A stretch of 58,379 nt of DNA from a virus. Its lineage: Duplodnaviria; Caudoviricetes. The DNA lies in IMG/VR virus record IMGVR_UViG_3300027965_000006, positions 1 through 58,379 of that record, one strand, 5' to 3'. The position numbers and the translations under genes are program-made. The notes beneath the pieces were generated by a model. The model saw only the letters and a program-made list of their open reading frames with translations, was not told the origin of the DNA and made no database searches. Positions 1,371 to 32,316 of this stretch are shown one piece after another (the first letter of the stretch is position 1; each line of letters opens with the position of its first letter).

Positions 1371-2155
1371 TGCACTGCCTCCTTGATGCTGAGCCGTCCG
1401 GCTCGGTCCCTCTTGATCTCGATCGCGTGTCCGAAGCACCGGGCGGCATCGCTCGGCACCATGGCCTTGAGTTCCTTTTCGGCGGCCTCGTTGTCCTTGC
1501 GGGCCTGCCGTGTGGTGGCCCACGTCGCGGCATTCGCGCCCCACGAGTTGTTGCCGGTCATGTCGTAGGTCTTCTCGGCCTTGACCGGCGCCGTGACGGC
1601 CGCCTGGGCGAAGGGTTTGCGGAGATCCCATACGCACCGGATGAATTCGGTGGCGCGCTTGAGCAGCTCGGCCGCGTAGGCGGCATCGCCGTCGATAATC
1701 TCGACGATCGGCTCGCTGGCGCCCATGATGACCGATAGGGCGCAGCGCCGCGCGCCGGTCACGATCATTTGCCAGTGCATTTGCGCCTGATAGCGGGCGA
1801 TGATGGTCTCGATCGGCTCGCGCCCGCCGACGTGCTTGCACTCGATCGGGCAGTCGAGTTTGACGGACCAGCCGTCGAGCGTGCAGGCGGACCAGCCGTT
1901 CATGTGAGTGACGACTTCGCCGCGCCGGGTGACTTCGCCGCTCTTGCGCTCGAACCAGTCGAGGTTGAGGCTTTCGGTGTGCGAGCCGAGCTGCACCGCC
2001 CAGACGCCGGAAAGGTCTTCCGGCACGTAGTCAGGGTCGCCGACCATCTCGCGCCAAAGGTTCATGATCTCGGCCTGGTCGCCGGTCATGAGGCAGGCGA
2101 CGCGCGAGGCGGTCAGCTTGCCGTCGCGGGCCGCGGTTTGGGCGGGACTCAACAT
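1367..2155 (-). CDS. YqaJ-like / lambda-exonuclease-family recombinase nuclease
   Basis: Motifs [25 protein letters not shown]; adjacent to bet. Confidence 0.9.
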
Positions 2156-2157
2156 AG

Positions 2158-3078
2158 CTATTTTCCCCTCAGTCTTGGTTGATTAGCAAAATCGGGCTTG
2201 CGGCCCGCGTGAGTGAACATGTCGTGCTGCGCCTGGGCCATGTCGATCGCGGCCGAGGCCCGCGGATTGATCCAGAGGACTTCGACACGATCTCTCGCAC
2301 CGTCCGCGTGAGCTTCCAGCTCGACCCTTCTCCACCCAGGCAGCGCCTTGTCGTAGCTGTCATGCGGATAGCCTGACAGGATCACGAAGCCTTTGAGCGT
2401 TCGCAGAAACGTCAGCAGGCGCGCGTGTCCATCGGCGTCGAGTTCGTGGGTGTAGCAACGGTTCCGGTGCATCGCCGATGATCTGGTCTCCCATACGTAG
2501 GGCGGATCGACGTAGTGCAACGTCTCGGCGCTATCGTGCTGCCCCATGACCTCCAATGCGTCGCGGTTCTCGATCACGATGCCGCGCAGCCGCTCGATGA
2601 TCGCCGGCAGGCGGTCGGGGTAGTTCGCCCAGTCGTGCGCCGGCGTGGTCCCTGATCGGTTTGAATTGGCCCGGAAGCCGGTGCGGGTAGCCTTGTTGTG
2701 GCCGTTCGATCCGAACCCCATGAAGCAGAGGATAACGAGCCTCCGCGCACGCTCGACCGGCTCGTCGGTATCGAGATAGCCGACCTCGAACTCGTCGCGA
2801 GCGAACGGGGTGAGGCGCAGTTTCTCCGAGAGCTGGCGCGCCTGGGTGTCGTCTTGGAGCACCCGAAATAGGTTCACAACCTCTTGGTCAAGATCGTTGT
2901 AGACCTCGCCGTAGGCCCGCGGCTTCTGCATGAGCACAGAAGCGGCCCCGCCGAATGGCTCGACGTACACCCGGTGCGGAGGAAAGTGGCTGATGATCCA
3001 CGGTGCCAGTTTCCACTTGCCGCCGTGCCAGCGGAGCACGGGCCGAGTCGGTTCGGCTATGGTCGCCATTACGTTCAT
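2158..3078 (-). CDS. dam: DNA adenine methyltransferase (Dam/D12 class)
   Basis: Motifs LRWHGGKW, YVEPFGGAASV, YNDLD and catalytic YVDPPY. Confidence 0.93.
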   Translation of the reverse strand: MNVMATIAEPTRPVLRWHGGKWKLAPWIISHFPPHRVYVEPFGGAASVLMQKPRAYGEVYNDLDQEVVNLFRVLQDDTQARQLSEKLRLTPFARDEFEVGYLDTDEPVERARRLVILCFMGFGSNGHNKATRTGFRANSNRSGTTPAHDWANYPDRLPAIIERLRGIVIENRDALEVMGQHDSAETLHYVDPPYVWETRSSAMHRNRCYTHELDADGHARLLTFLRTLKGFVILSGYPHDSYDKALPGWRRVELEAHADGARDRVEVLWINPRASAAIDMAQAQHDMFTHAGRKPDFANQPRLRGK

Positions 3079-3149
3079 TTCGCCAGCATGTTTATAAGGG
3101 TGCCGATCGCGAAGCAGATCGATCCGGCAAGGTAGAAGTAGTTGGCCAT
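3075..3149 (-). CDS. 24-aa hydrophobic peptide
   Basis: MANYFYLAGSICFAIGTLINMLAK; stop overlaps the dam start (ATGA). Below the ORF-track cutoff. Confidence 0.45.
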   Translation of the reverse strand: MANYFYLAGSICFAIGTLINMLAK

Positions 3150-3168
3150 GTTCGCTGAAGTTCCGTGA

Positions 3169-3345
3169 TTACGCGGAAGTCGGAATGGCGCCGCCGTCGA
3201 TCTCGTAGCCGGCCTTCTGCAGCTCGCGCATGTACCAAGCGCGATCCTCGGTGCTCAGCGCCTTGATCTCGGTCATGAACGACCCGGCGGACTGGCCCGG
3301 CTTCTTGAACACTTCGGTCATCGTCGCGATGAAGGACTTGGCCAT
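3169..3345 (-). CDS. 58-aa hypothetical protein
   Basis: MAKSFIATMTEVFKKPGQSAGSFMTEIKAL... with AGGAG SD; not in the ORF track. Confidence 0.7.
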   Translation of the reverse strand: MAKSFIATMTEVFKKPGQSAGSFMTEIKALSTEDRAWYMRELQKAGYEIDGGAIPTSA

Positions 3346-3385
3346 AGCTTTCTCCTGGGTTAAGTTGCTGGTTTAGTTATCGAGT

Positions 3386-3634
3386 TCACAGTAAGTTTTT
3401 GCGCAGCCGCGCGGCGCACCGGCGGCAAAGGTTGTCGTCCTCAAGCGCATCGGCGGCGGAACGGTCATCGAGCGCGAGCCAGCCGGTGGACGCAGGAAGG
3501 CCGCAGAGCGTCCCGCTGCCGTTGGAGGCGTGGTAGGGCTCGCGCTTCCACCACTGATGGTTTCGGCCCGATCCGGTGGCCGCCCGAGGCTTGGCACTGC
3601 AAACGAAGTGAAGCATGGGCCGATCCCCACTCAT
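3386..3634 (-). CDS. Small Cys/His-containing hypothetical protein
   Basis: H...TLCG...LCRRC possible Zn ligands; co-oriented with the early arm. Confidence 0.6.
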   Translation of the reverse strand: MSGDRPMLHFVCSAKPRAATGSGRNHQWWKREPYHASNGSGTLCGLPASTGWLALDDRSAADALEDDNLCRRCAARLRKNLL

Positions 3635-3640
3635 GATTTC

Positions 3641-3871
3641 TCATTCCATCGCGTTGATCTTTTCGAGATCGCCGGGCTTCGGCCATTCGAACGCAAAGGC
3701 TCGTCCGCGCAGGACTTCCCAAGCCGCGAAAAGTCGGCCGGCGGTGTATGGAACGCATACGGCGCGAACCCATTGCGAATAGCGGGTGCCTTGGCGCTCG
3801 ACGAAAACCTCGGTCTGCGCGCCTCGCGCATAGCAGCGCCGAAAGTTGTGGATGTAGAATGGTGTGCTCAT
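3641..3871 (-). CDS. Hypothetical protein
   Basis: 76-aa ORF with AAGGA SD, tightly packed. Confidence 0.6.
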   Translation of the reverse strand: MSTPFYIHNFRRCYARGAQTEVFVERQGTRYSQWVRAVCVPYTAGRLFAAWEVLRGRAFAFEWPKPGDLEKINAME

Positions 3872-3877
3872 TTTTCC

Positions 3878-4186
3878 TTAGTGGCGCTCATCCGCATGCA
3901 CTACGTGCATGTTGATCGGCGCCTTATCCATTTCCTCTTGGAACATCCTGACCCTGGTGCGGATGCGTTTAGCGCACCATTCGCTAAACCGGCGGGTCCC
4001 CGCTGCGGTGGCAGTCTCTTTTGATGTCGATGCCGCGAACGAGAGGACCATCAGGCAGGCCGAAATGATCTCGCCAGAAAGCAAGATCAATGTTCCTCCG
4101 CCATATTGCTTTCCAACATCAAAGATCGCGGTAGTTATCGCTTCTTCGATCTTCTCGGCATATTCCTGGTTAACCACTTGTGGCAT
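3878..4186 (-). CDS. Hypothetical protein
   Basis: 102-aa ORF, tightly packed, lower GC. Confidence 0.65.
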   Translation of the reverse strand: MPQVVNQEYAEKIEEAITTAIFDVGKQYGGGTLILLSGEIISACLMVLSFAASTSKETATAAGTRRFSEWCAKRIRTRVRMFQEEMDKAPINMHVVHADERH

Positions 4187-4194
4187 CTATTCTC

Positions 4195-4635
4195 TCACGT
4201 ATCTTGATTGGGTAATTGTGCGTCGGCCGATGCCCTTGAGCGCCATGAACGTCCCCCCTGTCCCGAAACGCAGGGCACCTTTCTGAAAGCCGACCCCGAC
4301 GCTGGCCGGCCGGTCTCCACGGGAGGGGGTAACTCACGTTTGCGGTCGAGCGCCGAGCGCCCCGGCAAAGGATCGCCGAAATAGGTTTGTCCGTAGTTGC
4401 GCGGCATCGCGAACAAAGCATCACGCTCGGCTAATAGGTCGGCTTCGTTGCGGATAGGGGAGGGGGATGGAGCCGGCGCGCGATGCGCTTGCGCGATGCT
4501 GCCGTTGATGCCGCCCCATGACAGACGATCGGCGCGGGCGAGGATGCGCGATCTACGCAAGGACGCGGACTGACGCGAGCGCGATAGGACATCCGCGATC
4601 CGCTTCGCCTGCTGTGCGGAGTTCAGGTAGCTCAT
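4195..4635 (-). CDS. Hypothetical protein
   Basis: ATG 4635 overlaps the upstream stop; contains FGDPLPGRSAL. Confidence 0.55.
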   Translation of the reverse strand: MSYLNSAQQAKRIADVLSRSRQSASLRRSRILARADRLSWGGINGSIAQAHRAPAPSPSPIRNEADLLAERDALFAMPRNYGQTYFGDPLPGRSALDRKRELPPPVETGRPASGSAFRKVPCVSGQGGRSWRSRASADAQLPNQDT

Positions 4636-4946
4636 GCCGCGACCCTCAGCCCGCGCGCCCAGGCAAGGCCGGCGTGCTTCTCGATGAAGTCGCGAACCGC
4701 AAGGGTGATGTCGTCGCCGGCCGCCTGCCGCTGCTCGGCCTCGTTGGCGACCGCGCGCGCGATCGTCTCCGTCACGTCGTCGCAGACGTGTTCCTCGGGA
4801 TTGCATTGCAGGATCGCCGTGATGTCGGCGACCGGAACCTGCTCGTTGAGGATGTCGGCGACGACGGCGGCGCGCGTGAGGAACAGGCGCTCGAGGATCG
4901 AGTCCTCGGTCCAGTCGAGCCGAAGCACGAAAACGTCTTGTGGCAT
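4632..4946 (-). CDS. Hypothetical protein, first gene of the leftward early operon
   Basis: ATG 4946 with GGAGG SD, just downstream of the PL-like promoter. Confidence 0.7.
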   Translation of the reverse strand: MPQDVFVLRLDWTEDSILERLFLTRAAVVADILNEQVPVADITAILQCNPEEHVCDDVTETIARAVANEAEQRQAAGDDITLAVRDFIEKHAGLAWARGLRVAA

Positions 4947-5315: not shown

Positions 5316-5500
5316 ATTTTGCAGAACTTCGGAAGAAGCCTGATCGGCAAGTCCGTGTCGCGGCCGCCCTCATATTTGGAGTAGGCGTCGCGCGTGACAC
5401 CTAGCAGCTCGGCCATGTCTTCCTGCGTGCGCGGCCCGCGCGCCTCCTTAAGGCGCCTCTTAAAGCCCTGACGCCACTGACGATCTGCCCCTTCATCCAT
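5234..5500 (-). CDS. CI-like XRE helix-turn-helix repressor
   Basis: From ATG 5500: RLKEARGPRTQEDMAELLGVTRDAYSKYEGG...GVSMTWLITG. Divergent from a Cro-like gene; no S24 peptidase domain. Confidence 0.85.
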   Translation of the reverse strand: MDEGADRQWRQGFKRRLKEARGPRTQEDMAELLGVTRDAYSKYEGGRDTDLPIRLLPKFCKICGVSMTWLITGQESAAASGSRQRRSS

Positions 5501-5579
5501 GCGGACAACTTGTCCCACAGCAGGTTGGATGTCACGGGACATCGCGGCCTTGACATTTGGGACCGTGGGTCCCATAGAT
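5501..5579 (+). promoter_or_regulatory. PR-like promoter and operators
   Basis: GCGGAC-N5-GTCCCA at 5501-5517; TTGACA at 5550-5555, then 2 nt, then TGGGAC-N5-GTCCCA at 5558-5574. Confidence 0.8.
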
Positions 5580-5585
5580 GGGAGC

Positions 5586-5813
5586 ATGTCAAAGCCCACT
5601 TCGTTTCGGTCGATCATCGCCCTCTGGCCGACCCAGGAGGCACTTGCGCTTGATGTGGGCGCCTCGCATGACGCGGTGCGCAAGTGGGCGCAGCGCGGAT
5701 TCATCCCTTCCGAATGGTGGACCTCGTTGCTCGGCACCACCCGAGCCCGCCAAGCTGGCGTCAACGCTGATTTGCTCGCGAAACTCGCCGCTTCCCGTGA
5801 GGCCGCCGCATGA
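5586..5813 (+). CDS. Cro-like HTH protein
   Basis: IIALWPTQEALALDVGASHDAVRKWAQRGFIPSEWW; divergent from the cI-like gene. Confidence 0.85.
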   Translation: MSKPTSFRSIIALWPTQEALALDVGASHDAVRKWAQRGFIPSEWWTSLLGTTRARQAGVNADLLAKLAASREAAA

Positions 5814-18616: not shown

Positions 18617-19480
18617 TCAAGATCGGGCCTCCAGCGCCGCGCGCAATTCATCCACGCTCATGCGCCGGGCCTTGTCGCTGCTGTTGCCGGGTCCCATGCT
18701 CTCGTGTTTCTTTTCGAACGCGGGAAGCCCGCGCACGTCCATCGTCGCGCCCATGGCTTCGGCAAGGTCGCCAAGCCGATAGGCGGGCAGTGTCGGTATC
18801 ATCACCTCGCCGCCCTTCATGGTCTCGATCGTGTTGAGCACGAGGTCGACGGCCTGATCCATCGTCATGAAGAATCGCGTGCAGTCGGGATCGGTGACCG
18901 GCACCGACGGCGCGCCGCCGGCGATGATCTCCTTCCACGTCGGGACGACGGAGCCGGTTGACGCCCAGACATTTCCATATCTGCAGACGGCGAAGATCGG
19001 ACCGTTCCAGCCGCGCGTGTTGTTGGCGTTGAGGAACAAGGATTCGGCGAACGCCTTGCTCGTGCCATAGGGGCTGACGGGTTCGAATGCCTTGTCGCTC
19101 GACAGGGCGACGACGCGGCACACGCCGGCGTCTTGCGCGGCCTCGATCACGTTGGTGGCTCCGTCGATGTTGGTTTTCTTGACCTCGATCGGGTTGTAGG
19201 CGCCGACCTCGATGCGCTTGAGCGCCGCGGCATGAACGACGGTCTCAATGCCGTGCATGGCGCGGTGCAGGCGGTCGCGGTCGCGGACATCGCCGATGAA
19301 CATGCGAAGCGTGCCGAACTGATCGAGCGCGGATAGTTCGCGCAGCATGGCGGCCTGCCGGTGTTCGCTGCGCGAATAGATCACGATGCGATGGGGCGGG
19401 GACGGCAAGCGGAGCAGGCGCTTGGTGAACGCCGTTCCAAACGCACCCGAGCCGCCGGTGATGAGGATGCTGCCGATCAT
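18617..19480 (-). CDS. pseB: UDP-GlcNAc 4,6-dehydratase (PseB/FlaA1-like)
   Basis: ATG 19480 with GGAG SD. Motifs ITGGSGAFG, IGDVRD, HAAALK, ALSSDKA, YGTSK, RYGNVWASTGSV, TRFFM, EKKHE. Confidence 0.92.
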   Translation of the reverse strand: MIGSILITGGSGAFGTAFTKRLLRLPSPPHRIVIYSRSEHRQAAMLRELSALDQFGTLRMFIGDVRDRDRLHRAMHGIETVVHAAALKRIEVGAYNPIEVKKTNIDGATNVIEAAQDAGVCRVVALSSDKAFEPVSPYGTSKAFAESLFLNANNTRGWNGPIFAVCRYGNVWASTGSVVPTWKEIIAGGAPSVPVTDPDCTRFFMTMDQAVDLVLNTIETMKGGEVMIPTLPAYRLGDLAEAMGATMDVRGLPAFEKKHESMGPGNSSDKARRMSVDELRAALEARS

Positions 19481-19626
19481 CTGCGCTCCCACGGCCGGGC
19501 GCATTTGCGGCGGGACACGAAGATCAGTTTGCGCAAAAAATCCTCCCATTCGATCGCGGTCCGGTATTGCTTTGCGGTGCAGCGCCATTCGCGATCGAAC
19601 CAAAAGTGGAGCAAGTCGAGCATCAC
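19477..19626 (-). CDS. 49-aa hypothetical protein
   Basis: MMLDLLHFWFDREWRC...; 4-nt overlaps with both neighbours. Confidence 0.45.
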   Translation of the reverse strand: MMLDLLHFWFDREWRCTAKQYRTAIEWEDFLRKLIFVSRRKCARPWERR

Positions 19627-21650
19627 GATGCCCTCACCATCGGCGCGATCGTCGCGCCCTCGAGGCGCCGCGCGATATTGTCGTGATCAAGTGCCTCGCG
19701 CATGATCGCCAGCGTGTGGTCATAGGATTTCAGAACGCGCTTGATATCGCCTTGCGTGTGGGCATAGCAGATGTTGTGCGATCCGATGATCAGGGTCCCG
19801 CTCGCGATCATCTCTTTGCGGAACAGAGCCCAGAGCTGGTCGACCGTCGCATTCTCGTGCGCCTTCATCGAAATGCGCTTGAGCGGGGCCTGACCATAGA
19901 GGCCGATCACGTCACCGAGTCCGTGCGCGCGGATGAGGTCGGTAACGTCGCTGCGCAACGTCTCGCCGGTCTCCCAAATCTTGTCGATGACGTTCTCGCG
20001 CTCCATCTTCGCAATGGTCGCGATCGACGCCGCGAGCGACAGCGTCTCGCCGCCGAACGTGCCGGAGAAGAACACGCACGGGTTCGGCGGCTCCAGCTTG
20101 CGCATGATATCGGCGCGCCCGACCAGCGCGGACAGCGGCATGCCGTTCGCCATCGCCTTGCCGAAGCAGGCGAGGTCCGGCGTCACGCCGTAGTATTCCT
20201 GCGCACCGCCGAGTGCGAAGCGGAAGCCGGTGATGACCTCGTCGAAGATCAGGAGGGGTCCTTCTTTGTCGCAGACATTACGCAGGTATTGCAGATATTG
20301 TGGGTTGCCTTCCGGCTCGACGATGATTGCAGCTACGTTGGAGAGGTCGTCGGGCGGACACTGGCTGAAATCAAGTCGTGCCGTCAGCTCCTTGACCGCA
20401 GTCGGCACGCCGAGATCGCGGAACGCGCCCGCGATCGACCAGTCATGCCAGCCATGATACCCGCCGCAGATGAGCACGCGGTCGCGGCCCGTGTAGGCGC
20501 GGGCGAGGCGGATCGCCGCCGTCGTCACGTCGGAGCCGTTCTTGCCGAACCGCACCATCTCGGCGCACGGGATCAGCCGCGTGAGCTTTTCGGCGAGCTG
20601 CGCTTCGAGTTCAGTGGAGAGACTGAAAGAGGCTCCAGATGCAAGCTGAGTGCGCACGGCACGGTCAACGTCTGCGTCACGGTAGCCAAGAATGTTTGGC
20701 AGCAGTGCGGACACGAGATCGACAAACTCGTTCCCGTCGATATCCCAACAGACTCCTCCCTGCCCGTGACTGAGGAAGAGCGGGGAGGGCTGGGGGAATT
20801 GAACGAAAGACTTGCTGAAGGTTTGCGCTGCGAGCGGGATGACTTTGTGCGCGCGCTCGAACTGCGCCTGCGACCTTTCGTATGACCGCGGGATGATCGG
20901 CTCATTGGCGATGGCCTCATAGTAACGTTCGTTCATCGGGTGGTGCCGGTTGATCTTGCGCAGCTCAGGCTTGCGGTCGAGCACGGCAAGGATATCGAGG
21001 TAGCGCGCGGGCGGGCCGTGCAGCTCGTTGGCGATGGCACTGCAGAACCGATAGTCGTTTTTGGTGTCGAGCACCCAGCGCTCTTTGTGCAAGCCGGGGA
21101 TCGGACACACGACCGCCGCGGCCGGCAGGCGCGAGCGGTTGCGCTGGATGAAGGTCGTGACGCACTCACGGTCGATCGGCCGCGTTGCGACTTCATGCGC
21201 GAACGCGAGCGAGTCGAAGGTGAATGCTTCGACATCAAGCCCGTCCGGCCATGTACGCGGATCGATGTTGGAGACGTAGTCGGCGCCGGTCTCCTTCTGC
21301 AGACGCACGACCTCGCCGATAACGTATGGATCGATGAACGGGCAGTCTCCGGTGATGCGCACGACGATGTCGGCCTCGACCTCTGCGGCTGCGCAATAGA
21401 CGCGGTCGAGAACGTCGTTCTCCGAACCCTGGTAGCAGGGAATATCATGGCGAGCGCACCACGCCCTGATCGGATCGTCGCCGACGAGCCCGGTCGTGGC
21501 GACGACGACTTGGTCGACGCCGGCCGCAGCGCGTGCAGCAGTGTAGACCCAGTGCAGCACCGGACGACCATCGCGGCCGAGCGGCATCAGCACCTTGCCG
21601 GGCAGGCGAGTCGAGCCCATGCGGGCGATGATGACGGCGGTTACGGTCAT
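19623..21650 (-). CDS. SpsF/PseF-like acylneuraminate cytidylyltransferase fused to a class III (GSA-aminomutase-like) aminotransferase
   Basis: N-terminus: ARMGSTRLPGKVL, GSENDVLDR, RITGDCP, PDGLDVE. C-terminus: QTFSKS, DIDGNEFVD, FGKNGSD, GYHGWHDW, FDEVITGFR, FGKAMANG, SGTFGG. Confidence 0.92.
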   Translation of the reverse strand: MTVTAVIIARMGSTRLPGKVLMPLGRDGRPVLHWVYTAARAAAGVDQVVVATTGLVGDDPIRAWCARHDIPCYQGSENDVLDRVYCAAAEVEADIVVRITGDCPFIDPYVIGEVVRLQKETGADYVSNIDPRTWPDGLDVEAFTFDSLAFAHEVATRPIDRECVTTFIQRNRSRLPAAAVVCPIPGLHKERWVLDTKNDYRFCSAIANELHGPPARYLDILAVLDRKPELRKINRHHPMNERYYEAIANEPIIPRSYERSQAQFERAHKVIPLAAQTFSKSFVQFPQPSPLFLSHGQGGVCWDIDGNEFVDLVSALLPNILGYRDADVDRAVRTQLASGASFSLSTELEAQLAEKLTRLIPCAEMVRFGKNGSDVTTAAIRLARAYTGRDRVLICGGYHGWHDWSIAGAFRDLGVPTAVKELTARLDFSQCPPDDLSNVAAIIVEPEGNPQYLQYLRNVCDKEGPLLIFDEVITGFRFALGGAQEYYGVTPDLACFGKAMANGMPLSALVGRADIMRKLEPPNPCVFFSGTFGGETLSLAASIATIAKMERENVIDKIWETGETLRSDVTDLIRAHGLGDVIGLYGQAPLKRISMKAHENATVDQLWALFRKEMIASGTLIIGSHNICYAHTQGDIKRVLKSYDHTLAIMREALDHDNIARRLEGATIAPMVRAS

Positions 21651-21856
21651 TTGCTGCTATTGATCTGTATGTTCATCGATTGGAGCATGTCGCTTGCGTG
21701 CACCCATGCGACGCCGTTCCAAACCTCGAAATCGGTTATCTCCTCCGGAGGAGTTCCTGGCGGGTAATCTCCGGTGACATGAACGTCGCCGAGGTAGGGA
21801 TTCTCGGGGCGCGGTGAGGGGCCCGGATAGTCCGGGTATCGGAGCTCCCGTTTCAT
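21647..21856 (-). CDS. Hypothetical protein
   Basis: 69-aa ORF, ATGA-coupled on both sides. Confidence 0.6.
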   Translation of the reverse strand: MKRELRYPDYPGPSPRPENPYLGDVHVTGDYPPGTPPEEITDFEVWNGVAWVHASDMLQSMNIQINSSK

Positions 21857-22728
21857 GTCGGCAGCCCCGCCATCTTGCGCGCGTCGAGGCAGAGCCGCAG
21901 TACGGCGAGTCCGTCCTCTCCGGTGGCGCCGCGCGTTTCCTTGCCTTCACAGCGATCGACGAAGGCGCGCATCTCGGCCATGTAGTCGTCGTCCCATGAC
22001 GCGAAGCCGCTTGCGGACATTCGATTTGTTCCCACTACGAGATCAGAGGATCGTCTTTCCAGGTCCACCGCGATCAGGCCATGCTCGCCTGCGATGACGA
22101 AGGTGCGAAAACTCGGAGCGGTGACGTAGTCGAGATGCACAGTCGTCCGCGTCATGTCGTCGTGCACCAAAAAGAGATCAGCTATTTCGTCTCCATCCGT
22201 CGAAGCCGCAGAGGCCAAAGTCGCCGGACCGAGCAGATGCAGCGCAAGATCGAGTTCGTGTGCTCCCCAGTTCAAAATGACGCCATCCCGCCGATAGGCC
22301 GGGCGGTTATTTTTCTGAGCGCAGGTGAAGTTAGCCCATAAAGGCTTGCCGATCGCAGTGGCGCCGAGCCAGCGCTTTGCGTCAATGACCGATTGATGAA
22401 ACCGCAACATGCACCCGACCATCACCTGCGCGCCGTTCTTCTTTGCCAGCGCGAGCAGGTCGGTGATGACCTCCGGGCTGCCGGTCGCGATCGGCTTCTC
22501 GACGAAGATGTGCTTGCCGCGCTCGGCTGCGGCGCGGATGCCGCCGGAATGGAATGCGCTCGGCGTCGCGATCACCACGGCATCGCAGATGTCGTAGACC
22601 TCGCGCTCGAAACTCATGTCCATCCGGCCGGCGGGGTCGAAGTGGATCACGTCATGCCCGAGCGCGGAGAGATTCGCGGCGTGGCGCGAGCCGATCGATC
22701 CCGCGCTGCCGAGGACGCCGATCTTCAT
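21853..22728 (-). CDS. Gfo/Idh/MocA-family oxidoreductase
   Basis: MKIGVLGSAGSIGSRH, VIATPSAFH, IFVEKP, LRFH, HELDL. Confidence 0.9.
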   Translation of the reverse strand: MKIGVLGSAGSIGSRHAANLSALGHDVIHFDPAGRMDMSFEREVYDICDAVVIATPSAFHSGGIRAAAERGKHIFVEKPIATGSPEVITDLLALAKKNGAQVMVGCMLRFHQSVIDAKRWLGATAIGKPLWANFTCAQKNNRPAYRRDGVILNWGAHELDLALHLLGPATLASAASTDGDEIADLFLVHDDMTRTTVHLDYVTAPSFRTFVIAGEHGLIAVDLERRSSDLVVGTNRMSASGFASWDDDYMAEMRAFVDRCEGKETRGATGEDGLAVLRLCLDARKMAGLPT

Positions 22729-23330
22729 GGGCGCTCCTCGATCAGATGACCCTTGCGCAGTGCGGTCACGCATTCGTCGCCAATGATCCGGCGCTCCATC
22801 AGCATGTACCAAGGATGCGCCAGCCACAGTTTTGCGAAGTCGAAATGATAGGCGGTCACGCCGGCGTTGTGCTTGTAGAAGCGAGCGAAGGACTCGCCCT
22901 TCACGGCAAAGTCGTGGATGACGAGAACGCCGGTGTAGAAGGTCAGCACGCGGTTGACCTCGGCGGCGATGCGCAGCCAATCGGCGGGATCGGTCAGATA
23001 CAAACAGAACCCGCAGATCACGAGATCGAACATCTCGCGGCCAAGCGGAAGGGAATCGGCGGTGCCGCGCGCGGCCGGGACGGAGTTGAGCCCGCCCGCC
23101 TCGGCGACCGCCTTCGCGCTCGGGTCGACGCCGAACACCTCGCATCCGTATTGTGCGCGCAGCCGAGCGAGCCGCCATCCGTTGGCGCAGCCTATTTCGA
23201 GCACGCGCTTCGGCTGCAGGCGGAGATCGGCGATGACCTCGCTCACCGGATCGTGCTGGCCGAGCTTGGCGCGGTTGCGCTCCAGCCACGCATCGCCTTC
23301 CGATTCGAGCATGATGTCGGTCTGGCTCAC
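22725..23330 (-). CDS. Class I SAM-dependent methyltransferase
   Basis: GTG start; EGDAWLERN, VLEIGCANG, GVDPS, FDLVICGFCLY. Confidence 0.88.
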   Translation of the reverse strand: MSQTDIMLESEGDAWLERNRAKLGQHDPVSEVIADLRLQPKRVLEIGCANGWRLARLRAQYGCEVFGVDPSAKAVAEAGGLNSVPAARGTADSLPLGREMFDLVICGFCLYLTDPADWLRIAAEVNRVLTFYTGVLVIHDFAVKGESFARFYKHNAGVTAYHFDFAKLWLAHPWYMLMERRIIGDECVTALRKGHLIEERP

Positions 23331-23731
23331 GGACGAAGCTCGTAGGTGTGTTGCAGCGCCTTGAAGCCGAGGCACTGGAACATGCGGGCCGAGCGTGCGT
23401 TGCCCGGCGCGACGTTGGCGAGATAGCGCTCACGCGGATGCGCCTTCATCAGCAGGCTAATCGCGGCCGGCGCGTAGCCGCGACCCCAGTACGACTTGAA
23501 GATCGACACGCCGATCTCGTCATCGACCGTGAGATAGATCGCGCCGACATATTCGCCGTCGACCTCGATGAGGTACCACTCGGTATAAGGTCTGGAGGCG
23601 AAAAATCTCGCGTGCTCGACGAGCGCCGGCATCTTGCGATGCGAGATGTTCGCTTCGGCCGGACGCTCCGCGAGCAGGTCGTAGAGCAGCGGCATCGCGC
23701 CGTGCTCGGTATAGGCATCGACAAGTTTCAC
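23327..23731 (-). CDS. GNAT acetyltransferase (PseH-like)
   Basis: GTG start; YVGAIYL...EIGVSI...WGRGYA...ANVAPGNARSARMF..LGF. Confidence 0.85.
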   Translation of the reverse strand: MKLVDAYTEHGAMPLLYDLLAERPAEANISHRKMPALVEHARFFASRPYTEWYLIEVDGEYVGAIYLTVDDEIGVSIFKSYWGRGYAPAAISLLMKAHPRERYLANVAPGNARSARMFQCLGFKALQHTYELRP

Positions 23732-24243
23732 CGGAACCTCCCGTAATAGACGGCGGCGGTGAGTTCGTTCCCGAGCATGAAATGCGCGCGGCGCTCGCCC
23801 TCGAAGGTGAAGCCGGACCGCTCCGCGACCTTGCGCATGGCGTGGTTCGCCGCCATGAATCCGCATTCGAGCTTGCGGAAGCCGCCCGCATCCTTGTCGA
23901 GCAGCCATGCCGATGCGGCCTTGAACGCCTCAGTCGCAAATCCCTTGCCCCATTGCTCGCGGTCGCCGATCATCACGCCGAGATCGGCGATGTGATTGGG
24001 CTCGTCGGCGTCGGCTGAGATGTTGCCGATGTGCGCGCCGTCGGCGACGTGCTCTATGGCCCAGAGATGGCTGCCGGGCGGGCGCGAGCGGATGTAGGTC
24101 AGTTGGGATGACAACGAATGGTGCGCATGCCGTTGTTCGGAGAACGCGACAACTTGCGGATCACGCAACCAATCGACTTGGCGCTGCGTGGCCTTGGTCA
24201 GCGGCCGCAGGACGAGGCGCTCGGTGTTCAAAGTTGGCGTCAT
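23728..24243 (-). CDS. GNAT acetyltransferase (RimJ/RimL-like)
   Basis: LNTERLVLRPL, HIGNI, IGDREQWGKGFATEA, NHAMRKVAERSGFTFEG. Confidence 0.9.
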   Translation of the reverse strand: MTPTLNTERLVLRPLTKATQRQVDWLRDPQVVAFSEQRHAHHSLSSQLTYIRSRPPGSHLWAIEHVADGAHIGNISADADEPNHIADLGVMIGDREQWGKGFATEAFKAASAWLLDKDAGGFRKLECGFMAANHAMRKVAERSGFTFEGERRAHFMLGNELTAAVYYGRFR

Positions 24244-24554
24244 CGATCTTTGATCCAGTCGAACCAAGATCGGAAAAACCATCGTCGCCATTCGAATCCG
24301 GCAAATCCGATTTCTCTGCCGGTCCAGGCTGCCGCCGAGCCTTGAATGGTGGCCGCAGGGGATAAGTGTCGATAGCGAATCGGCGGAAGCCAATTCCATG
24401 CACAGCCGGCACTCAGGCGCCACACGATATCGCCCTCGCTTACATGATTGCGGCGCAATAGACCGAATGAAATTTCTCGGTCGGCGTAGTAATAGAACGA
24501 CCGCCCGATGTAGAAATATCCGAATTTGTCGTGACGAATGCGCATCGCGGTCAC
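24240..24554 (-). CDS. Aromatic-rich hypothetical protein
   Basis: Fills the gap with 4-nt overlaps at both ends. Confidence 0.45.
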   Translation of the reverse strand: MTAMRIRHDKFGYFYIGRSFYYYADREISFGLLRRNHVSEGDIVWRLSAGCAWNWLPPIRYRHLSPAATIQGSAAAWTGREIGFAGFEWRRWFFRSWFDWIKDR

Positions 24555-25140: not shown

Positions 25141-25415
25141 GCCGAACTCCCGGCCGTGAGGGCTTTTTCGAGCAGAACGCCCATCATTGAGGCGGTTGAG
25201 CGCATTTCCTGCACCGCGAGCGCCTGAATCGCCTCGCGCACGGTCCGGCGCAGGGTGATTCGTGTCTGCCAGCTCTCAAATTCGCCCTCGATGCGGCGCT
25301 GCATGTGCTGATTGATACCAAACTGACACCAAAACGCAATAAGAATGAGTAACGGTTCATCTTATCCACCGTTTTTGCTATGCTTTCGGTCGATGCGCGC
25401 TTCGGAGCAGCAAAA

Positions 25416-28226
25416 ATGGGCATGACGCCGGCTCAGGCGGCGGTTTTCGCCCGCGCGCTCAAGCGCGGCCGCGAAATCCAGGAGGCGGAGCGCTGCGAGG
25501 CGAGCCTCTACGAGTTCGTCAAGGCTGCCTGGCACGTGTTCGACCCGGCCGAGTTCGTCGGCAACTGGCACCTGGAGGACATCTGCGAGCACCTGGAGGC
25601 GGTGGCGCGCGGCAACATCCCGCGGCTCCTGATCAACGAGCCGCCGCGCACCGGGAAGACCGCCCTGGTATCGATCTGCTTCCCGGCGTGGGTGTGGGCG
25701 CAGCGCGAAAAGGGCCCGCTGATGGGCCCGCAGGTCTCGTTCTACTACGCGAGCTACGCCGAGCAGCTGTCGCTCGAGCATTCGCTCAAATGTCGGCGCC
25801 TGATCGAATCGCGCTGGTATCAGCGGCTATGGGGCAGTCGCTTCAAGCTGGTCTCCGACCGCAATACCAAGGGGCACTTCGAGAACGACAAGGGTGGCTA
25901 CCGCATGGCGTCGTCGGTCGACGCGAGAGCCACGGGGTTTGGCGCGGATATCTTGTGCCTGCCAAAGGATGAGCATATACTCACGTCTTCGGGATGGCTC
26001 CCGATCGGAAAAATAGTTGGGGAAAAACTGGACGTCGAGGTCGCGGGCTATGACCACGCGACCGGATGTGTCGTTTGGCAGAGAATCCTTGAGCACGAAC
26101 AAAATCCGGGACGGCCGCTCGTCGCAGTCACTTTTGATGGCGGCTCTTTTCGGTGCACCGACGACCATCCCGTCTTCGTCGAGGGACGGGGTTACGTCCC
26201 CGCCGGAAGCGTCCGTGTCGGTGACCGCCTCATCCTGTGTGATCTGTCAGGGCCCGCTCTATTTCGCGAAACGCAGGGCGAGCAACAAGGTGACGTGCTC
26301 GGCGCGATGCTATGCGGAACTACAGCGGCGCAGGATCGCGGCGAGTACCACGCCATGCAGGGTATGCGGCGCCCCGGTCTACGCGACGCCAGCACACCGA
26401 CGCCGTGGCAATGGGCAGTATTGCTCAAGGGTTTGTTCAGGAAAGGCAGAAGCCGGCGCGAAAAATCATCAGTGGCTTGGCGGAAAGGTTACGAAGAACT
26501 GCAAGCGTTGCGGTGCCGAGTTTCGCTGCGATCCGGGGCAATCGGCGCGACGGCAATACTGCAGCCATTCGTGCACTTCTCGTTCGGCATGGGATCGGCG
26601 CGGTCGGATGCCGTGGCGAAATTGCGAGGAGTGCGGGCTGCCGTTCAAGCGTGGCGCAGTGGACGGCAAGAAGGTCAGATTCTGCTGCAAGGCATGCAAG
26701 GACCGGGCGCATGCCAAAGAGATGCGGGACCGGGGCAATCCGCGCTACGTCCACGGCGAATCTCGGCGGCGATACGGGCGTGGTTGGACAAGGGGGCGCA
26801 AGCTATCCGTTCGCTCTCGGGATGGCTTCATGTGCCGCGTTTGCAGCCTGCCGGAATCGGAGCATGGGACGGCGTTGCACGTGCACCACATCAACTACGA
26901 CAAGAACGACATGGCGCTCGACAACCTGATTTCAGCCTGTCGCGACTGCCACGGTCGGATGCACGGGACGCCCGACCAGCGCAAGGAGTGGCAACGGCGG
27001 TTGTCCGCTCTATTGAGCGCGCCGGCTACGCCGAGCACACCTACAATCTCAATGTAAGCCCCTGCCACAACTACTTTGCCGGCGGCGCGTTGCTGCACAA
27101 CTGCGCCGACGACCCGCACCTCGTGAAAGAGGCCGAATCGGACCTCGTGCGCGAGGGCGTGGTGCGGTGGTGGAGTGAGACGATGCCGAGCCGCATGAAC
27201 GACCGGCGCACCGGCGCCATGGTCGTGGTGATGCAGCGCGTGCACGAAGGCGATCTTTCGGGGCACATCCTCGCCAACGACCTCGGCTACGTGCATATCT
27301 GCGTGCCGCTCTGCTACGTGCCGTGCTTCCACGTCAATGCCTGGGTCGGCGACCGGATCGAGACGATCATCGGCGAGGAAGACGTCGCGGAAATTGCTGA
27401 CGAGGACGTGTTCTGGACCGATCCGCGCACCGAGGAGGGCGAGCTGCTGTGGCCCGCCCGCCTGCCGGCGAGCGAGGTGGCGAAGATCGAAAAAGAGGTG
27501 GGCCCGTATGGGTTTGCGGGGCAATACCAGCAGGAGCCGGCCCCGCGCGGCGGCGGAATCATCCGCGCCGAGTGGTGGCAGCAATACAACGACGACGTCG
27601 GGGCCGACGCCGGCGCCAAGCCGGGGCAATACCCGCCGTGCGAATACATCCTCGCGTCGCTCGACACCGCCTACACCGAAAAAGAGGAAAATGACTATTC
27701 GGCGCTGTCGATCTGGGGCATCTGGCGCGACAAGAACGGCAACCCGCAGATCATCCTCATGCTGTGCTGGCAGGAGCGGCTCCAGATACACGAGCTGGTG
27801 AGCCGGGTCGGGGCGGACTGCAAGACCTTCACGGTCGACCGGCTGATCATCGAGGACAAGGCGGCCGGCCATTCGGTGAGCCAGGAACTGGCGCGGCTGT
27901 TCGGCACGTTTGATTTCGGCATCGAGCTGGTCAATCCCCGGACCGGGTTCATCAAATCGCCCGACAAGGTGGCGCGGCTGCAGACGGTGGTGCACTTGTT
28001 CGCCGAGGGGCTTGTCTGGGCTCCGGACAAGGCGTGGGCGGACGAGATGATCAAGCAGTGCGCCCTGGTGCCGCGCGCGCTGCACGACGATCTGGCGGAT
28101 TCGATGAGCCAAGCCCTGATCTACCTGCGCCGCGCCGGCTGGGCGCAGCGCAAGGAGGAGCGGGCGATCGAGGTCGAGGACGAGCTACGCTATCGGCCCC
28201 GGTCCGGGGCGCTCTATCCGGTGTGA
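25416..28226 (+). CDS. terL: Terminase large subunit (intein-containing)
   Basis: ATG 25416 with GGAG SD. Walker A NEPPRTGKT; Walker B ADIL|CADDPH split by the intein; VMQRVHEGD, GQYQQEP, SLDTAY, IEDKAAG, HDDLADS. Confidence 0.95.
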   Translation: MGMTPAQAAVFARALKRGREIQEAERCEASLYEFVKAAWHVFDPAEFVGNWHLEDICEHLEAVARGNIPRLLINEPPRTGKTALVSICFPAWVWAQREKGPLMGPQVSFYYASYAEQLSLEHSLKCRRLIESRWYQRLWGSRFKLVSDRNTKGHFENDKGGYRMASSVDARATGFGADILCLPKDEHILTSSGWLPIGKIVGEKLDVEVAGYDHATGCVVWQRILEHEQNPGRPLVAVTFDGGSFRCTDDHPVFVEGRGYVPAGSVRVGDRLILCDLSGPALFRETQGEQQGDVLGAMLCGTTAAQDRGEYHAMQGMRRPGLRDASTPTPWQWAVLLKGLFRKGRSRREKSSVAWRKGYEELQALRCRVSLRSGAIGATAILQPFVHFSFGMGSARSDAVAKLRGVRAAVQAWRSGRQEGQILLQGMQGPGACQRDAGPGQSALRPRRISAAIRAWLDKGAQAIRSLSGWLHVPRLQPAGIGAWDGVARAPHQLRQERHGARQPDFSLSRLPRSDARDARPAQGVATAVVRSIERAGYAEHTYNLNVSPCHNYFAGGALLHNCADDPHLVKEAESDLVREGVVRWWSETMPSRMNDRRTGAMVVVMQRVHEGDLSGHILANDLGYVHICVPLCYVPCFHVNAWVGDRIETIIGEEDVAEIADEDVFWTDPRTEEGELLWPARLPASEVAKIEKEVGPYGFAGQYQQEPAPRGGGIIRAEWWQQYNDDVGADAGAKPGQYPPCEYILASLDTAYTEKEENDYSALSIWGIWRDKNGNPQIILMLCWQERLQIHELVSRVGADCKTFTVDRLIIEDKAAGHSVSQELARLFGTFDFGIELVNPRTGFIKSPDKVARLQTVVHLFAEGLVWAPDKAWADEMIKQCALVPRALHDDLADSMSQALIYLRRAGWAQRKEERAIEVEDELRYRPRSGALYPV
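25956..27101 (+). mobile_element. Intein (382 aa) in terL Walker B
   Basis: Block A CLPKDEHILT; block B FRCTDDHPVFV; blocks F/G TYNLNVSPCHNYFAGGALLHN followed by extein Cys+1. Confidence 0.93.
26050..27057 (+). CDS. Zn-finger-repeat HNH endonuclease in the +1 frame inside the intein (start ATG 26050 or GTG 26215)
   Basis: Four CxxC...C[SC]xxC modules, then RDGFMCRVC...LHVHHINYDKNDMALDNLISACRDCHGRMH. Confidence 0.88.
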   Translation: MTTRPDVSFGRESLSTNKIRDGRSSQSLLMAALFGAPTTIPSSSRDGVTSPPEASVSVTASSCVICQGPLYFAKRRASNKVTCSARCYAELQRRRIAASTTPCRVCGAPVYATPAHRRRGNGQYCSRVCSGKAEAGAKNHQWLGGKVTKNCKRCGAEFRCDPGQSARRQYCSHSCTSRSAWDRRGRMPWRNCEECGLPFKRGAVDGKKVRFCCKACKDRAHAKEMRDRGNPRYVHGESRRRYGRGWTRGRKLSVRSRDGFMCRVCSLPESEHGTALHVHHINYDKNDMALDNLISACRDCHGRMHGTPDQRKEWQRRLSALLSAPATPSTPTISM

Positions 28227-28513: not shown

Positions 28514-30949
28514 ATGGCCGCGCCCACCAGCCTTCGCCTCGTTGACCAGCAGCCGGACGCCGAGCCGCTCGCGCCGTCGACGGTGCAGTTGCCGGGCGAC
28601 GATGACGGCATCTCGCTGGAGAACGGCGCGCTCAAGGTCGAGCGGCCGGACGGTTCGGTCACCATCGACCTCAATCCGGATCTGTCCGGCGCGCAATCGG
28701 GCAGCGGCGACTTCTACCGCAACCTCGCCCTTGAGATCGCCGAGGCCGATCTCGCGGCGATTGCGACCGATCTTCTGACCGGCATCGAGTACGACGAGCA
28801 GTCGCGGCGGGAATGGCTGGAGACGCGGGCGACCGGAATCAAGCTCTTGGCGCTCAAGCTGGAGGAGCCGCGCGGCGACGTCGGGACGTCATCGGCCCCG
28901 CTCGAAGGCATGGCGACCATCCGCCATCCGCTCCTGCTGGAGGCGACGGTCCGGTTCCAGGCGACGGCGCGCGGCGAGTTGCTGCCCGCCGCAGGTCCCG
29001 TGAAGGTGCGCAACGACGCGACGCCGGCCCCGGAGCCGCCCGCACCGGGCACGCCGCCGGCCGCGATCGGCCACAACGGCGGACCGTCGATGACCGAACT
29101 CGACGATCTCGGCACCGCGCTCGAAAAGGACATGAACCACTATCTCACGGTGACGGCGAGCGAATACGTCGCCGACACCGACCGCATGCTGTTCTACATC
29201 GGCTTCGGCGGGGACGGATTCAAGAAGGTCTACAACTGCCCGCTGCGCCGCCGCCCGGTGTCCGAATCGGTCGATGCCGAGAACATCATCGTGTCGAACG
29301 CCGCGACCGACCTGCAGAACTGCGGCAGAGTGACTCACCGCATCAAGATGCGGCCGTCGGTGCTGCGCCGCATGCAGATCGTCGGCGAGTACCGCGACGT
29401 GCCGCTCAATCCGCCGAATCCGTCCGAGCCGGTCAACGCGGTGGACAAGGAGAAGGCCGCTATCGCCGGGGTGAAACCGCAGCCGCAGCGACCGAAGGAC
29501 AACGATTACACGGTCTATGAGGTCTACTGCGAGCTCGACCTCGACAAGTTCGCGCCGGACCAGTTCAAGGGCAAGGCGCTGCCGCTGCCCTATGTGGTGA
29601 CGCTGGAGAAGGAAAGCCGACAGGTTCTGCAAGTTCGGCGCAACTGGAACGAGGACGATCCGCAGTGCCTCGCCAAGCGGTTCTTCGTCCAGTTCCCGTT
29701 CATCCGCGGCCTCGGTTTCTACGGGCTCGGGCTGATCCACCTGCTCGGCAACGTGACGATGACGCTGACGGCGGTGTGGCGCGAGTTCATCGACAGCGGG
29801 ATGTTCGCGAATTTTTCCGGCTGGCTATTCGCCAAGGGCGCCGGGCGCCAACTCACCAATCAGCTTCGCGTGCCGCCGGGCGGCGGCATCGGGGTCGACG
29901 TGCCGCCGGGCATGCGGATCCAGGACGCCTTCATGCCGCTCCCGTACAAGGAGCCCGGCGCATCGTTCTCGCAATTCGTCACCCACGTCGAGGAGGTCGG
30001 CCAGCGGCTCGGGCAGACCGCCGACGTCAACATCGGCGAGGGCAAGCAGGACATGCCGGTCGGAACCACCATGGCGCTGATCGAGCAGTCGACCAAGGTC
30101 ATCGACTCGGTGCACAAGCGGCTGCACGCCGCCCAGGCCGAGGAGTTCGCGCTGCTCAAGGAGCGCTTCCGCGAGGATCCGGAGGCGTTCTGGCGCCACA
30201 ACAAGAAGCCGGCGCGGCAGTGGCAGGTGGAAGAGTTCAAGCGGGCGCTGGAGCAGCGTGAGCTTGTCCCGGTCGCCGATCCGAACAACCCGACGTCGCT
30301 GCATCGCATCGCCAAGGCGACGATCATCGATGCGCTGGTGACCAAGTATCAGCAATTGTTCAACGCGCCGAACGCGGTGCGTCGCATCCTGCGGGTCGCC
30401 GGGATCGATGCCGAGGGGTTGCTCAATGCGCAGCCGGCGCCGCCCCCGCCCGACCCGCGCTTTGCCGCGATCCAGGCCAAGGCGCAGGCCGAGGCGATGA
30501 AGGCCGAGATCGACAAGGCGCGGGTGCTGATCCAGGCGCAGACCGCGCAGGCCAATTTCGCCGACAAGCAGGCCGAACGCGCCTTCAAGGAGCGCATGCA
30601 GCAGTTCGAGATGTATCTCGAGGCGATGCGGGTGCAGGCCGAGGCGATAATCCACGCGCATGACCTGCACCGCGACAACGTGCAGGCCGCTTCCGAGATC
30701 GAAACGCAGCGCGCGCAGGCGGCACACGAGATCGCGATGGACCACGCCGCACACCAGCAGGACATGACGCACGAGGCGCAGCGGCACGAGCTCGGCCTTG
30801 CGGCCGAGCGGGCGCGCGCCGAGCAGCAAGGCGGCGCCGTCGAAGATCGCCACGAGCAGCAGATGCGCCACGCCGACGAGAAGCACGAGGCGCAACTGGC
30901 GCATCAGCGCGCCATGGCGGCCGCAAAGCCCAAACCGGGAGAGAAATGA
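28514..30949 (+). CDS. Portal protein
   Basis: 811 aa after terL; HPLLLEATVRFQATARGELLPAAGPVK, GFYGLGLIHLLG, PVGTTMALIEQ; long helical C-terminus. Confidence 0.9.
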   Translation: MAAPTSLRLVDQQPDAEPLAPSTVQLPGDDDGISLENGALKVERPDGSVTIDLNPDLSGAQSGSGDFYRNLALEIAEADLAAIATDLLTGIEYDEQSRREWLETRATGIKLLALKLEEPRGDVGTSSAPLEGMATIRHPLLLEATVRFQATARGELLPAAGPVKVRNDATPAPEPPAPGTPPAAIGHNGGPSMTELDDLGTALEKDMNHYLTVTASEYVADTDRMLFYIGFGGDGFKKVYNCPLRRRPVSESVDAENIIVSNAATDLQNCGRVTHRIKMRPSVLRRMQIVGEYRDVPLNPPNPSEPVNAVDKEKAAIAGVKPQPQRPKDNDYTVYEVYCELDLDKFAPDQFKGKALPLPYVVTLEKESRQVLQVRRNWNEDDPQCLAKRFFVQFPFIRGLGFYGLGLIHLLGNVTMTLTAVWREFIDSGMFANFSGWLFAKGAGRQLTNQLRVPPGGGIGVDVPPGMRIQDAFMPLPYKEPGASFSQFVTHVEEVGQRLGQTADVNIGEGKQDMPVGTTMALIEQSTKVIDSVHKRLHAAQAEEFALLKERFREDPEAFWRHNKKPARQWQVEEFKRALEQRELVPVADPNNPTSLHRIAKATIIDALVTKYQQLFNAPNAVRRILRVAGIDAEGLLNAQPAPPPPDPRFAAIQAKAQAEAMKAEIDKARVLIQAQTAQANFADKQAERAFKERMQQFEMYLEAMRVQAEAIIHAHDLHRDNVQAASEIETQRAQAAHEIAMDHAAHQQDMTHEAQRHELGLAAERARAEQQGGAVEDRHEQQMRHADEKHEAQLAHQRAMAAAKPKPGEK

Positions 30950-31911: not shown

Positions 31912-32316
31912 ATGTCGATTGCCAGTGCCAAGAAGATCGAGGTAATCGCCCAGGCGAAGGACCCGAAACAGGCGATTTTTGATGCGGTGGGCGACCTCAC
32001 CGGCGTCGAGGTGTTTTCCGACCTCGTGCTGGTCGGCACCTTCATCCGCAACGAGAAGACGGCGGGGGGAATCATCATGCCGACCTCGCACCTGCAGGAG
32101 GACGAATTCCAGGGCAAGGTCGGGCTGGTGCTCAAGTCGGGCCCGCTCGCCTGGCTCGATGGCGAGAATGAGCCCGGGAGCAACGCGCGGCCCGGCACCT
32201 GGGTCGTCTATGCCATCAAGGACGGCTGGCCGGTGCAGATCAACGGCACCGCCTGCCGCTTCGTGCCCTACGAGAAGCTGCGCGCGCGCGTCGCCGACCC
32301 GAAGGCGGTGTTCTAA
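31912..32316 (+). CDS. GroES-like co-chaperonin
   Basis: DLVLV...EKTAGGIIMP (mobile loop)...GLVLKSGP...GTWVVY. Confidence 0.8.
   Translation: MSIASAKKIEVIAQAKDPKQAIFDAVGDLTGVEVFSDLVLVGTFIRNEKTAGGIIMPTSHLQEDEFQGKVGLVLKSGPLAWLDGENEPGSNARPGTWVVYAIKDGWPVQINGTACRFVPYEKLRARVADPKAVF

Follow-up and report, generated by a model that had tools for sequence, protein, structure and literature searches.

Several phage and cellular inteins have been described whose endonuclease gene lies in a different frame from the splicing domain. For brucellaphages, an HNH endonuclease lying out of frame within an intein of the large terminase gene (terL) is stated in PMC4422536, which also cites the terminase-associated HNH proteins of HK97 gp74 type (Kala et al. 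2014). Gosselin, Arsenault and Gogarten (bioRxiv 10.1101/2025.01.02.630785) treated out-of-frame intein endonucleases as a class in actinophages and proposed that a free-standing nuclease gene invades an intein. A cyanobacterial dnaX intein with an out-of-frame LAGLIDADG endonuclease was proposed to be a mini-intein that was secondarily invaded (bioRxiv 10.64898/2026.09.14.751524). Other related arrangements are the fractured genes of Dassa et al. 2009 (PMC2677866), in which the two halves of a split intein enclose an endonuclease gene that stands on its own, and ShiLan, an out-of-frame HNH insertion in an actinophage DNA methylase (PMC11855218). Here we analyse terL of IMG/VR virus record IMGVR_UViG_3300027965_000006, a soil phage of 58,379 bases that was taken at its full length and is called the window below. 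Its terL very probably carries, in the Walker B motif, a mobile class-1 intein, with the homing endonuclease encoded as a separate +1-frame gene in the intein's middle. An earlier reading of the window from its letters alone (the sequence-only reading) had called this design rare rather than certainly new, a judgement borne out by the brucellaphage case already in print.

The terL intein and the nuclease gene nested in it

The features of the locus are as follows.

25380..28226, plus strand: terL (large terminase) precursor open reading frame (ORF), 948 codons without a stop across the intein, assigned by PHROG and Pfam
25380..25955, plus strand: N-extein, ending in ...GFGADIL, the first half of Walker B, from alignment with intein-less terL
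25956..27101, plus strand: class-1 intein, C...HN|C, in terL Walker B, 382 codons with 0 stops in the terL frame
25956..26240, plus strand: N-terminal splicing lobe (HINT), under terL-frame selection, PT-HINT match over residues 9-93
26241..26990, plus strand: HNH gene as read through in the terL frame, some 250 codons, stop-free only, predicted to leave with the intein
26991..27101, plus strand: C-terminal splicing lobe (GVATAVVRSIER...ALLHN), first codon GTG 26991, from terL-frame alignment
27102..28226, plus strand: C-extein, from Cys+1-ADDPH (second half of Walker B) through the nuclease domain, from alignment and PHROG
26017..27057, plus strand: +1-frame ORF with four zinc-ribbon modules and HNH, 346 codons, candidate starts ATG 26050, GTG 26215 and GTG 26221
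26236..26697, plus strand: four CxxC...CxxxC zinc-ribbon modules of the +1 product (26236-26310, 26356-26436, 26500-26574, 26623-26697), with invariant Cys
26833..26964, plus strand: HNH catalytic core of the +1 product, CxxC...HH...N...CxxCH...H, from Pfam, PDB profile and Foldseek

Both exteins matched PHROG phrog_38, the terminase large subunit (E 1e-28 and 5e-51), Pfam placed Terminase_6C, the terminase nuclease domain, in the product, and the portal gene lies downstream (28514..30949). Around the insert the product reads ...GFGADIL|CLPKDEH...ALLHN|CADDPH.... Intein-less terminases align without a gap across the junction (GGDIICIDDPH against GADIL|...|CADDPH), which locates the insert within Walker B, and its removal restores this conserved host motif in colinear form, as it does for an intein. 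The class-1 marks Cys1, T68..H71 of block B, the terminal H381-N382 and Cys+1 are all present, and they are invariant in the three inteins aligned. In Pfam the terL-frame intein matched Intein_splicing and PT-HINT only (the latter at 21.5 bits against a cut-off of 27.7), both matches being confined to the two ends, and tblastn connected the lobes with those of 20 other loci. AlphaFold2 modelled the lobes with confidence (residues 1-94 and 346-369, block means of 53-80 in pLDDT, a predicted local distance difference test score) and gave the centre (residues 95-345) a pLDDT below 50; the terL-frame centre had no Pfam family match. By its class-1 residues and its junction the insert is a class-1 intein, which would be removed by protein splicing.

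The +1 product scored 27.5 bits against HNH PF01844 (cut-off 21.4), and among four relatives scanned L002 (27.7) and L007 (21.9) were above the cut-off and L004 (20.7) and L005 (19.6) just under it. Residues C200, C203, H217, H218, N230, C235, C238, H239 and H243 are invariant in the five sequences aligned, as are the zinc-module Cys. The AlphaFold2 model had a mean pLDDT of 70, with 71-88 in the HNH core, the putative beta-beta-alpha-metal fold, and a PDB profile search returned 5h0m (E 9e-5), the closest solved relative by sequence being the GVE2 phage HNH. The zinc modules are presumed to be the DNA-recognition part. They had no Pfam match with E < 0.1 in the window product, and the PDB profile search gave weak hits, at E 0.04 to the MYM-type zinc finger 2das and at E 0.11 to L24e; a resemblance to TRASH/FCS-type fingers is kept as a lead. 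Judged by its domain, catalytic and zinc residues, the nuclease appears intact and would be expected to cleave DNA.

Two of the candidate starts stand in a Shine-Dalgarno (SD) context, GAGGT before ATG 26050 (duplex -6.6 kcal/mol) and GGAAG before GTG 26215 (-3.5 kcal/mol). GTG 26215/26221 are favoured because in split relatives of the intein, described below, the ATG of the HNH gene precedes the first CxxC by 4-12 codons; translation of the nuclease thus most likely starts at one of these two, with ATG 26050 as a possible start. The stop, TAA 27055-27057, falls within the C-terminal splicing block (NLNVSPCHNYF). On all these counts the sequence-only reading was accurate: it had described a terL frame open across a C...HN|C intein, a centre lacking any known domain in that frame, and a +1 ORF with four zinc modules, an intact HNH, SD-preceded starts at 26050 and 26215 and a stop inside the splicing block.

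Selection in two frames and correctness of the sequence

In order to read selection per frame, five lineages were aligned by protein and nucleotide differences were tallied per codon position. Over the N-lobe, the window and L002 differ at 23, 18 and 49 of 80 terL codon positions 1, 2 and 3, respectively, and over the centre they differ at 58, 61 and 124 of 235 positions counted in the +1 frame. Translated in the +1 frame, the centre has an amino-acid identity of 0.68, as against 0.42 when it is read in the terL frame and 0.39 in the unused third one, and the terL-frame peptide is therefore unconserved as a protein. The splicing lobes are selected in the terL frame, and the centre is selected in the +1 frame.

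Stop avoidance was tested by shuffling synonymous codons in such a way that neither the HNH protein nor its codon usage changed. The terL frame of the window has no stop where a mean of 8.0 is expected, and it was open in 0/5000 shuffles; the third frame has 4 stops (3.55 expected). The same holds for 14 of 16 loci, which have 0 stops in the terL frame against 4.3-15.6 expected, with at most 7 of 2000 shuffles open, and the third frame matches the stop expectation in the loci of this test. Since the terL frame avoids stops over the nuclease gene, ribosomes must translate terL through it. Dual coding of the intein centre, as the sequence-only reading had proposed from one sequence, is real and maintained by selection, and is seen both in the frame-specific substitutions and in the avoidance of terL-frame stops.

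Two compensating indels in the assembly could have displaced an ordinary in-frame HNH intein, and the sequence-only reading had named two such frameshift errors as what would overturn it. The window is a metagenome-derived record, and the upstream frame switch (about 26230) is spanned only by runs that may be its source. Logan contigs of these two runs showed neither a difference nor a gap across 25800-27300. A run of a separate study is identical over 26666-27250, a stretch that takes in the switch back to the terL frame, and so is a fourth run over 26515-26795. The terL protein cluster has three members on three contigs, and a 57%-identical protein in a public collection has the same out-of-frame tails. 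The +1 offset with an open terL frame recurs in 14 diverged lineages; 41 records of Brucella phages and three further phages in culture also show the nesting. A fused in-frame intein-HNH form was found neither among longer proteins, which is weak evidence, nor among the best 150 profile hits (109-672 residues). The artefact is thus refuted for practical purposes, and we regard its chance as negligible. A CAA insertion at 26599 was considered as a variant and rejected; it came from a 2939-base record whose 34-base match, with two differences, belongs to another organism.

Relatives, mobility and split versions of the intein

Five metagenome loci with the HNH were found, in the order N-extein, N-lobe, +1 HNH, C-lobe and C-extein, of which L006 ends within the HNH. 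An HNH-profile search of IMG/VR gave 33 loci; in 17 the HNH lies between terL intein lobes, and the remaining 16 match in the HNH core only and lie outside terminase genes. In the nested loci the HNH invariably stands +1 to the part downstream of it. The layout is shared by the 41 Brucella phage records and is annotated in phages Pr and Tb as two overlapping coding sequences (CDS); NC_019447 has terL at 2347..4893 ('intein present') and an overlapping 'putative HNH endonuclease' at 3170..3856, offset by +1. The three other cultured phages show the same nesting, with +1 zinc-ribbon HNH ORFs of 325-380 codons:

Gordonia phage Clown (L123), locus 1480-4239: long terL CDS, Walker B intein, unannotated +1 HNH
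Ralstonia phage RS-CA1 (L124), locus 1477-3963: long terL CDS, Walker B intein, unannotated +1 HNH
Synechococcus phage S-EIVl (L125), locus 1441-3981: long terL CDS, Walker B intein, unannotated +1 HNH

A single-protein viral scan and a genome-contig scan returned no relative; the alignment-based scans did. A search by shared 5-residue words for terL proteins with a similar terL-frame centre returned only the window's own cluster, and since that centre diverges too fast for such words, this search is uninformative on rarity.

Three further observations were made on these loci. Brucella phage EF4 (L126, MT002975) was set aside, several genes being in pieces in its record: terL is in three CDS pieces and terS and a GcrA-like gene in two each, unlike in the 40 sister records, and an assembly full of errors, not a split intein, is the probable cause. 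In L024 a second N-lobe match (5405-5668, 28% identity, E 3e-7) lies in the terL frame 3' of the C-extein match, and may be a second intein, in the terminase nuclease domain. In L114-L117 (e.g. L115:1660-1893) an N-lobe-like match (30% identity) lies in the same frame about 700 bases 5' of the N-extein match, and may be an intein at a different site or in a neighbouring gene.

Mobility was assessed on 79 loci of IMG/VR whose C-extein shares 40-83% identity with that of the window, both exteins being visible in 76. At the insertion site, 73 of the 76 are gap-free, two differ by one codon and one (L086) has an unrelated insert of 1188 bases, so that 75 have no insert there. The window's HNH occurs in 0 of the 79 loci within the flanks covered (other HNHs elsewhere in those genomes were not looked for). 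The L086 insert (about 1188 bases between the extein matches, L086:1722-3001) has no match to the intein lobes or HNH, and is either a different insertion element or a diverged N-terminal part. A FastTree tree of the C-extein (93 rows; duplicates L003, L006, L011 and L020 and matches not spanning residues 5-160 were excluded) calls for at least 8 intein gains or losses, 7 of them forced by well-supported branches. Within the window's clade of 29 rows, the intein is present only in the window and L002; the window is sister to the intein-less L061, and L002 to the intein-less L090.

The flanks of the site also differ between the two kinds of allele.

25946..25955, plus strand: upstream flank of the presumed homing site, letters common with L002 at -10, -7 and -3
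27102..27113, plus strand: downstream flank, TGC (Cys+1) against GTC/GTG/ATT/TTT (Val/Ile/Phe) in intein-less alleles, common letter at +12

Across the junction the sequence of the intein-less alleles is GADIL|V(or I, F)ADDPH, with Cys in place of the Val, Ile or Phe in intein-bearing alleles. The window and L002 have common letters at -10, -7, -3, +1, +2 and +12, against 5-6 of 6 intein-less alleles, and 8 of the 11 downstream differences (240 nt) between L002 and the near-identical L090 lie within +45. Homing with co-conversion would be expected to leave such marks, as would immunity to the nuclease that the element encodes, and either reading implies a nuclease. As judged from its sporadic distribution among close alleles and these flank marks, as in homing inteins, the intein is mobile.

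Two other roles for the HNH have to be weighed here. It could be a terminase-associated helper of packaging, of the HK97 gp74 kind, now inside terL; its location in the terminase gene, the functional link raised in PMC4422536 and the GVE2 phage HNH as best solved sequence relative all suit this. A site empty in 75 of 76 close terL relatives, together with the HNH's absence from all 79 loci, means however that the HNH is dispensable for the terminase lineage; it moves along with the intein lobes and the flank changes, truncated copies exist (L028 and L029, below), and four sequence-reading zinc modules fit a site-specific enzyme. We consider a packaging role improbable in the extreme. Slightly less so, though still very unlikely, is an inert copy, in which the element is fixed, the HNH ORF is still whole through recency yet inactive, and splicing alone matters. 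Relatives with a broken or truncated HNH (L028, L029) speak for this, but in the window 346 codons are open with all invariant catalytic and zinc residues kept, the +1 frame is under purifying selection in the pair with the nearest relative, and the nearest extein relatives are intein-less.

For the homing intein with its nested nuclease gene, we propose the following mechanism. Ribosomes would read straight through terL and produce a precursor in which an N-lobe of about 95 residues and a C-lobe of about 37 residues are linked by some 250 unselected, probably disordered residues. The lobes would fold as a HINT domain and splice, whereby the whole insert is lost, ...GADIL is joined to CADDPH... 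and Walker B is restored. Internal initiation in the terL message would yield the nuclease, some 280-335 residues long, which would bear the four zinc ribbons and the HNH core. In a mixed infection this nuclease would cut intein-less terL at or near ...GCCGACATCCTG|GTCGCCGACGAT..., and repair off the intein-bearing genome would copy the element with a short flank, including the Val-to-Cys change. We infer the splicing, the start codon, the nuclease activity and the target from the sequence.

Several points weigh against this proposal, besides the coverage of the upstream frame switch given above. The intein loci of the tree came from a search by HNH and the intein-less ones from a search by extein similarity, so that it shows scatter and not rates; the common flank letters could be explained by selection for cleavage immunity and not by co-conversion. 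The Pfam Intein_splicing match (E 5e-6, 26.7 bits) is under the gathering score of 35.8, the AlphaFold2 model of the intein was built on three sequences and has a mean pLDDT of 42, and the best Foldseek matches of the +1 product are HNH nucleases but weak (top 5h0m, E 0.014). Separate translation of the nuclease is deduced from sequence: the best SD, that of ATG 26050, lies 62 codons 5' of the first zinc ribbon and within the N-lobe, no HNH start codon position shared across the contiguous members was found, no RNA run was among those listed for the stretch, and a scan limited to the sigma-70-like consensus gave 0 promoter sites inside terL against 0.6 expected.

The contiguous state of the intein is seen in 14 loci, the window included, at 47-69% G+C content (GC) over the intein. 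The regions read in low-GC relatives (L019/L020, L021, L025, L028 and L029; 29-34% GC) have the same lobes, HNH and site in a split form. Their terL frame terminates just past the N-lobe, the HNH has its own ATG at -7 to +44 bases from the terL-frame stop, and the C-lobe opens a new ORF at ATG GAA, an ATG that overlaps the codon for the invariant Trp in the HNH tail. The shuffle test on L025 gave 38 stops in the terL frame against 36.7 expected, and stop avoidance is therefore lost there. L005/L006 (58% GC) have 3 stops against 8.1 expected, with 29 of 2000 shuffles as low, and look like a recent break. In L028:3159-3800 and L029:1-600 the HNH is cut to about 60-90 codons and the zinc ribbons are lost or one is left, which fits a decay stage of the homing cycle. 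The window itself is not split, having 0 terL-frame stops; the split layout was seen only in L019/20, L021, L025, L028, L029 and L005/6.

At the position where the C-terminal intein fragment (IntC) starts in the split relatives there is ATG in these relatives, GTG in the window (26991) and L004, ATG in L002, and GCC, which is no start codon, in Brucella phage Pr (L007). It was also observed that AAGGAG immediately abuts GTG 26991 in the window (26980-26993), and that the split relatives have a purine-rich stretch 5-9 bases 5' of the IntC ATG.

The split relatives also bear on programmed frameshifting, by which a +1 shift near 26230 and a shift back near 26990 would give a conventional intein-HNH fusion. 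In favour of this, the offset is constant (+1) in all relatives. An untranslated centre needs no stop avoidance, however, yet the terL frame avoids stops strongly, and the split relatives have terL-frame stops and separate ATGs for HNH and IntC; on reading through the switch points we saw no conserved slippery sequence, no formal search having been made. We hold frameshifting to be even less credible than a packaging role for the HNH.

Taken with the nested nuclease gene of the window, these loci suggest that one intein family spans the whole gene-breaking path to split inteins, that base composition decides how far it goes, and that the window's type is an intermediate; we put the chances of this at about even. 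On such a series, the HNH would be tolerated in contiguous inteins of mid and high GC because selection can hold the terL frame free of stops. The later IntC start would already exist in contiguous members, Brucella phage Pr apart, as the NTG across the Trp codon of the HNH tail. If it is true, the window's type is the long-sought intermediate in the origin of split inteins. Since the family has contiguous, freshly broken and fully split versions at one site, the origin of split inteins becomes directly testable.

Elsewhere in the window, a sugar-modification cluster adjoins the packaging module on the minus strand upstream of terL (18620-24423), with matches to a nucleotide-sugar epimerase (18620-19603), an aminotransferase (19626-21650) and an acetyltransferase (23731-24423), and a GroES-like gene lies at 31912-32313.

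Comparison with known systems

The closest described systems are the brucellaphages Tb and Pr (Perisivirus), whose intein occupies the same terL Walker B site (GNRAD|C...HN|CVIIDDP), with a +1 offset, an open terL frame and stop avoidance (0/2000 shuffles open). Their HNH is homologous to that of the window (28.5% identity over 186 residues, E 1e-8) and has zinc ribbons upstream. The window shares each trait of this type, namely the Walker B insertion, the +1 HNH ORF, the open terL frame and the homologous HNH. The brucellaphage intein is shorter (332 codons against the window's 382) and aligns to fewer zinc modules, its HNH start is unambiguous (GTG, SD -8.7 kcal/mol) whereas that of the window is ambiguous, and the exteins are only about 27% identical.

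The actinophage inteins of 10.1101/2025.01.02.630785 resemble that of the window in having the splicing domain in the extein frame, the nuclease in an overlapping ORF and an unstructured in-frame middle, with terL as a main host and a sporadic distribution. In that paper the out-of-frame nucleases are endonuclease VII-like in 'frame 3', or antisense LAGLIDADG or VSR-like, and the HNH inteins listed are in frame. The Clown terL intein is the largest class-1 intein in that data set, and the +1 HNH within it is shown here. The cyanobacterial dnaX intein of 10.64898/2026.09.14.751524 likewise has overlapping frames, frame-dependent selection, a disordered in-frame middle and a sporadic distribution, and differs from the window's in its cellular host, LAGLIDADG nuclease and +2 offset. 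ShiLan (PMC11855218) also hides an HNH in another frame of an insertion that does not interrupt the host frame. The ShiLan insertion lacks a splicing domain and is regarded as a loop that stays in the host protein, whereas the nuclease gene of the window is flanked by clear HINT lobes.

The loci L019/L020, L021, L025, L028, L029 and L005/L006 share the exact layout of the fractured genes of PMC2677866, and in the split relatives, too, the nuclease gene runs at its 3' end into the start of IntC (by 6-69 bp in that paper). Unlike the fractured genes, terL of the window is unbroken. The fractured-gene nucleases of PMC2677866 are GIY-YIG or Vsr-like and not HNH, and the only terminase locus there has an unusual split point. 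We found no paper stating the contiguous-to-split series for the HNH/terL family, and this series, with its link to base composition, may exceed published knowledge.

Overlapping nuclease genes of this kind escape standard annotation; in three of the four cultured-phage groups (Clown, RS-CA1 and S-EIVl) the terL records have no HNH feature. An intein can hold about 250 unselected residues and yet persist in an essential gene, which is useful for intein engineering, where the permissible size of a linker or insert matters. The design itself is already known, from brucellaphages and then as a class described in 2025-26, and the window is one further, ordinary member of it.

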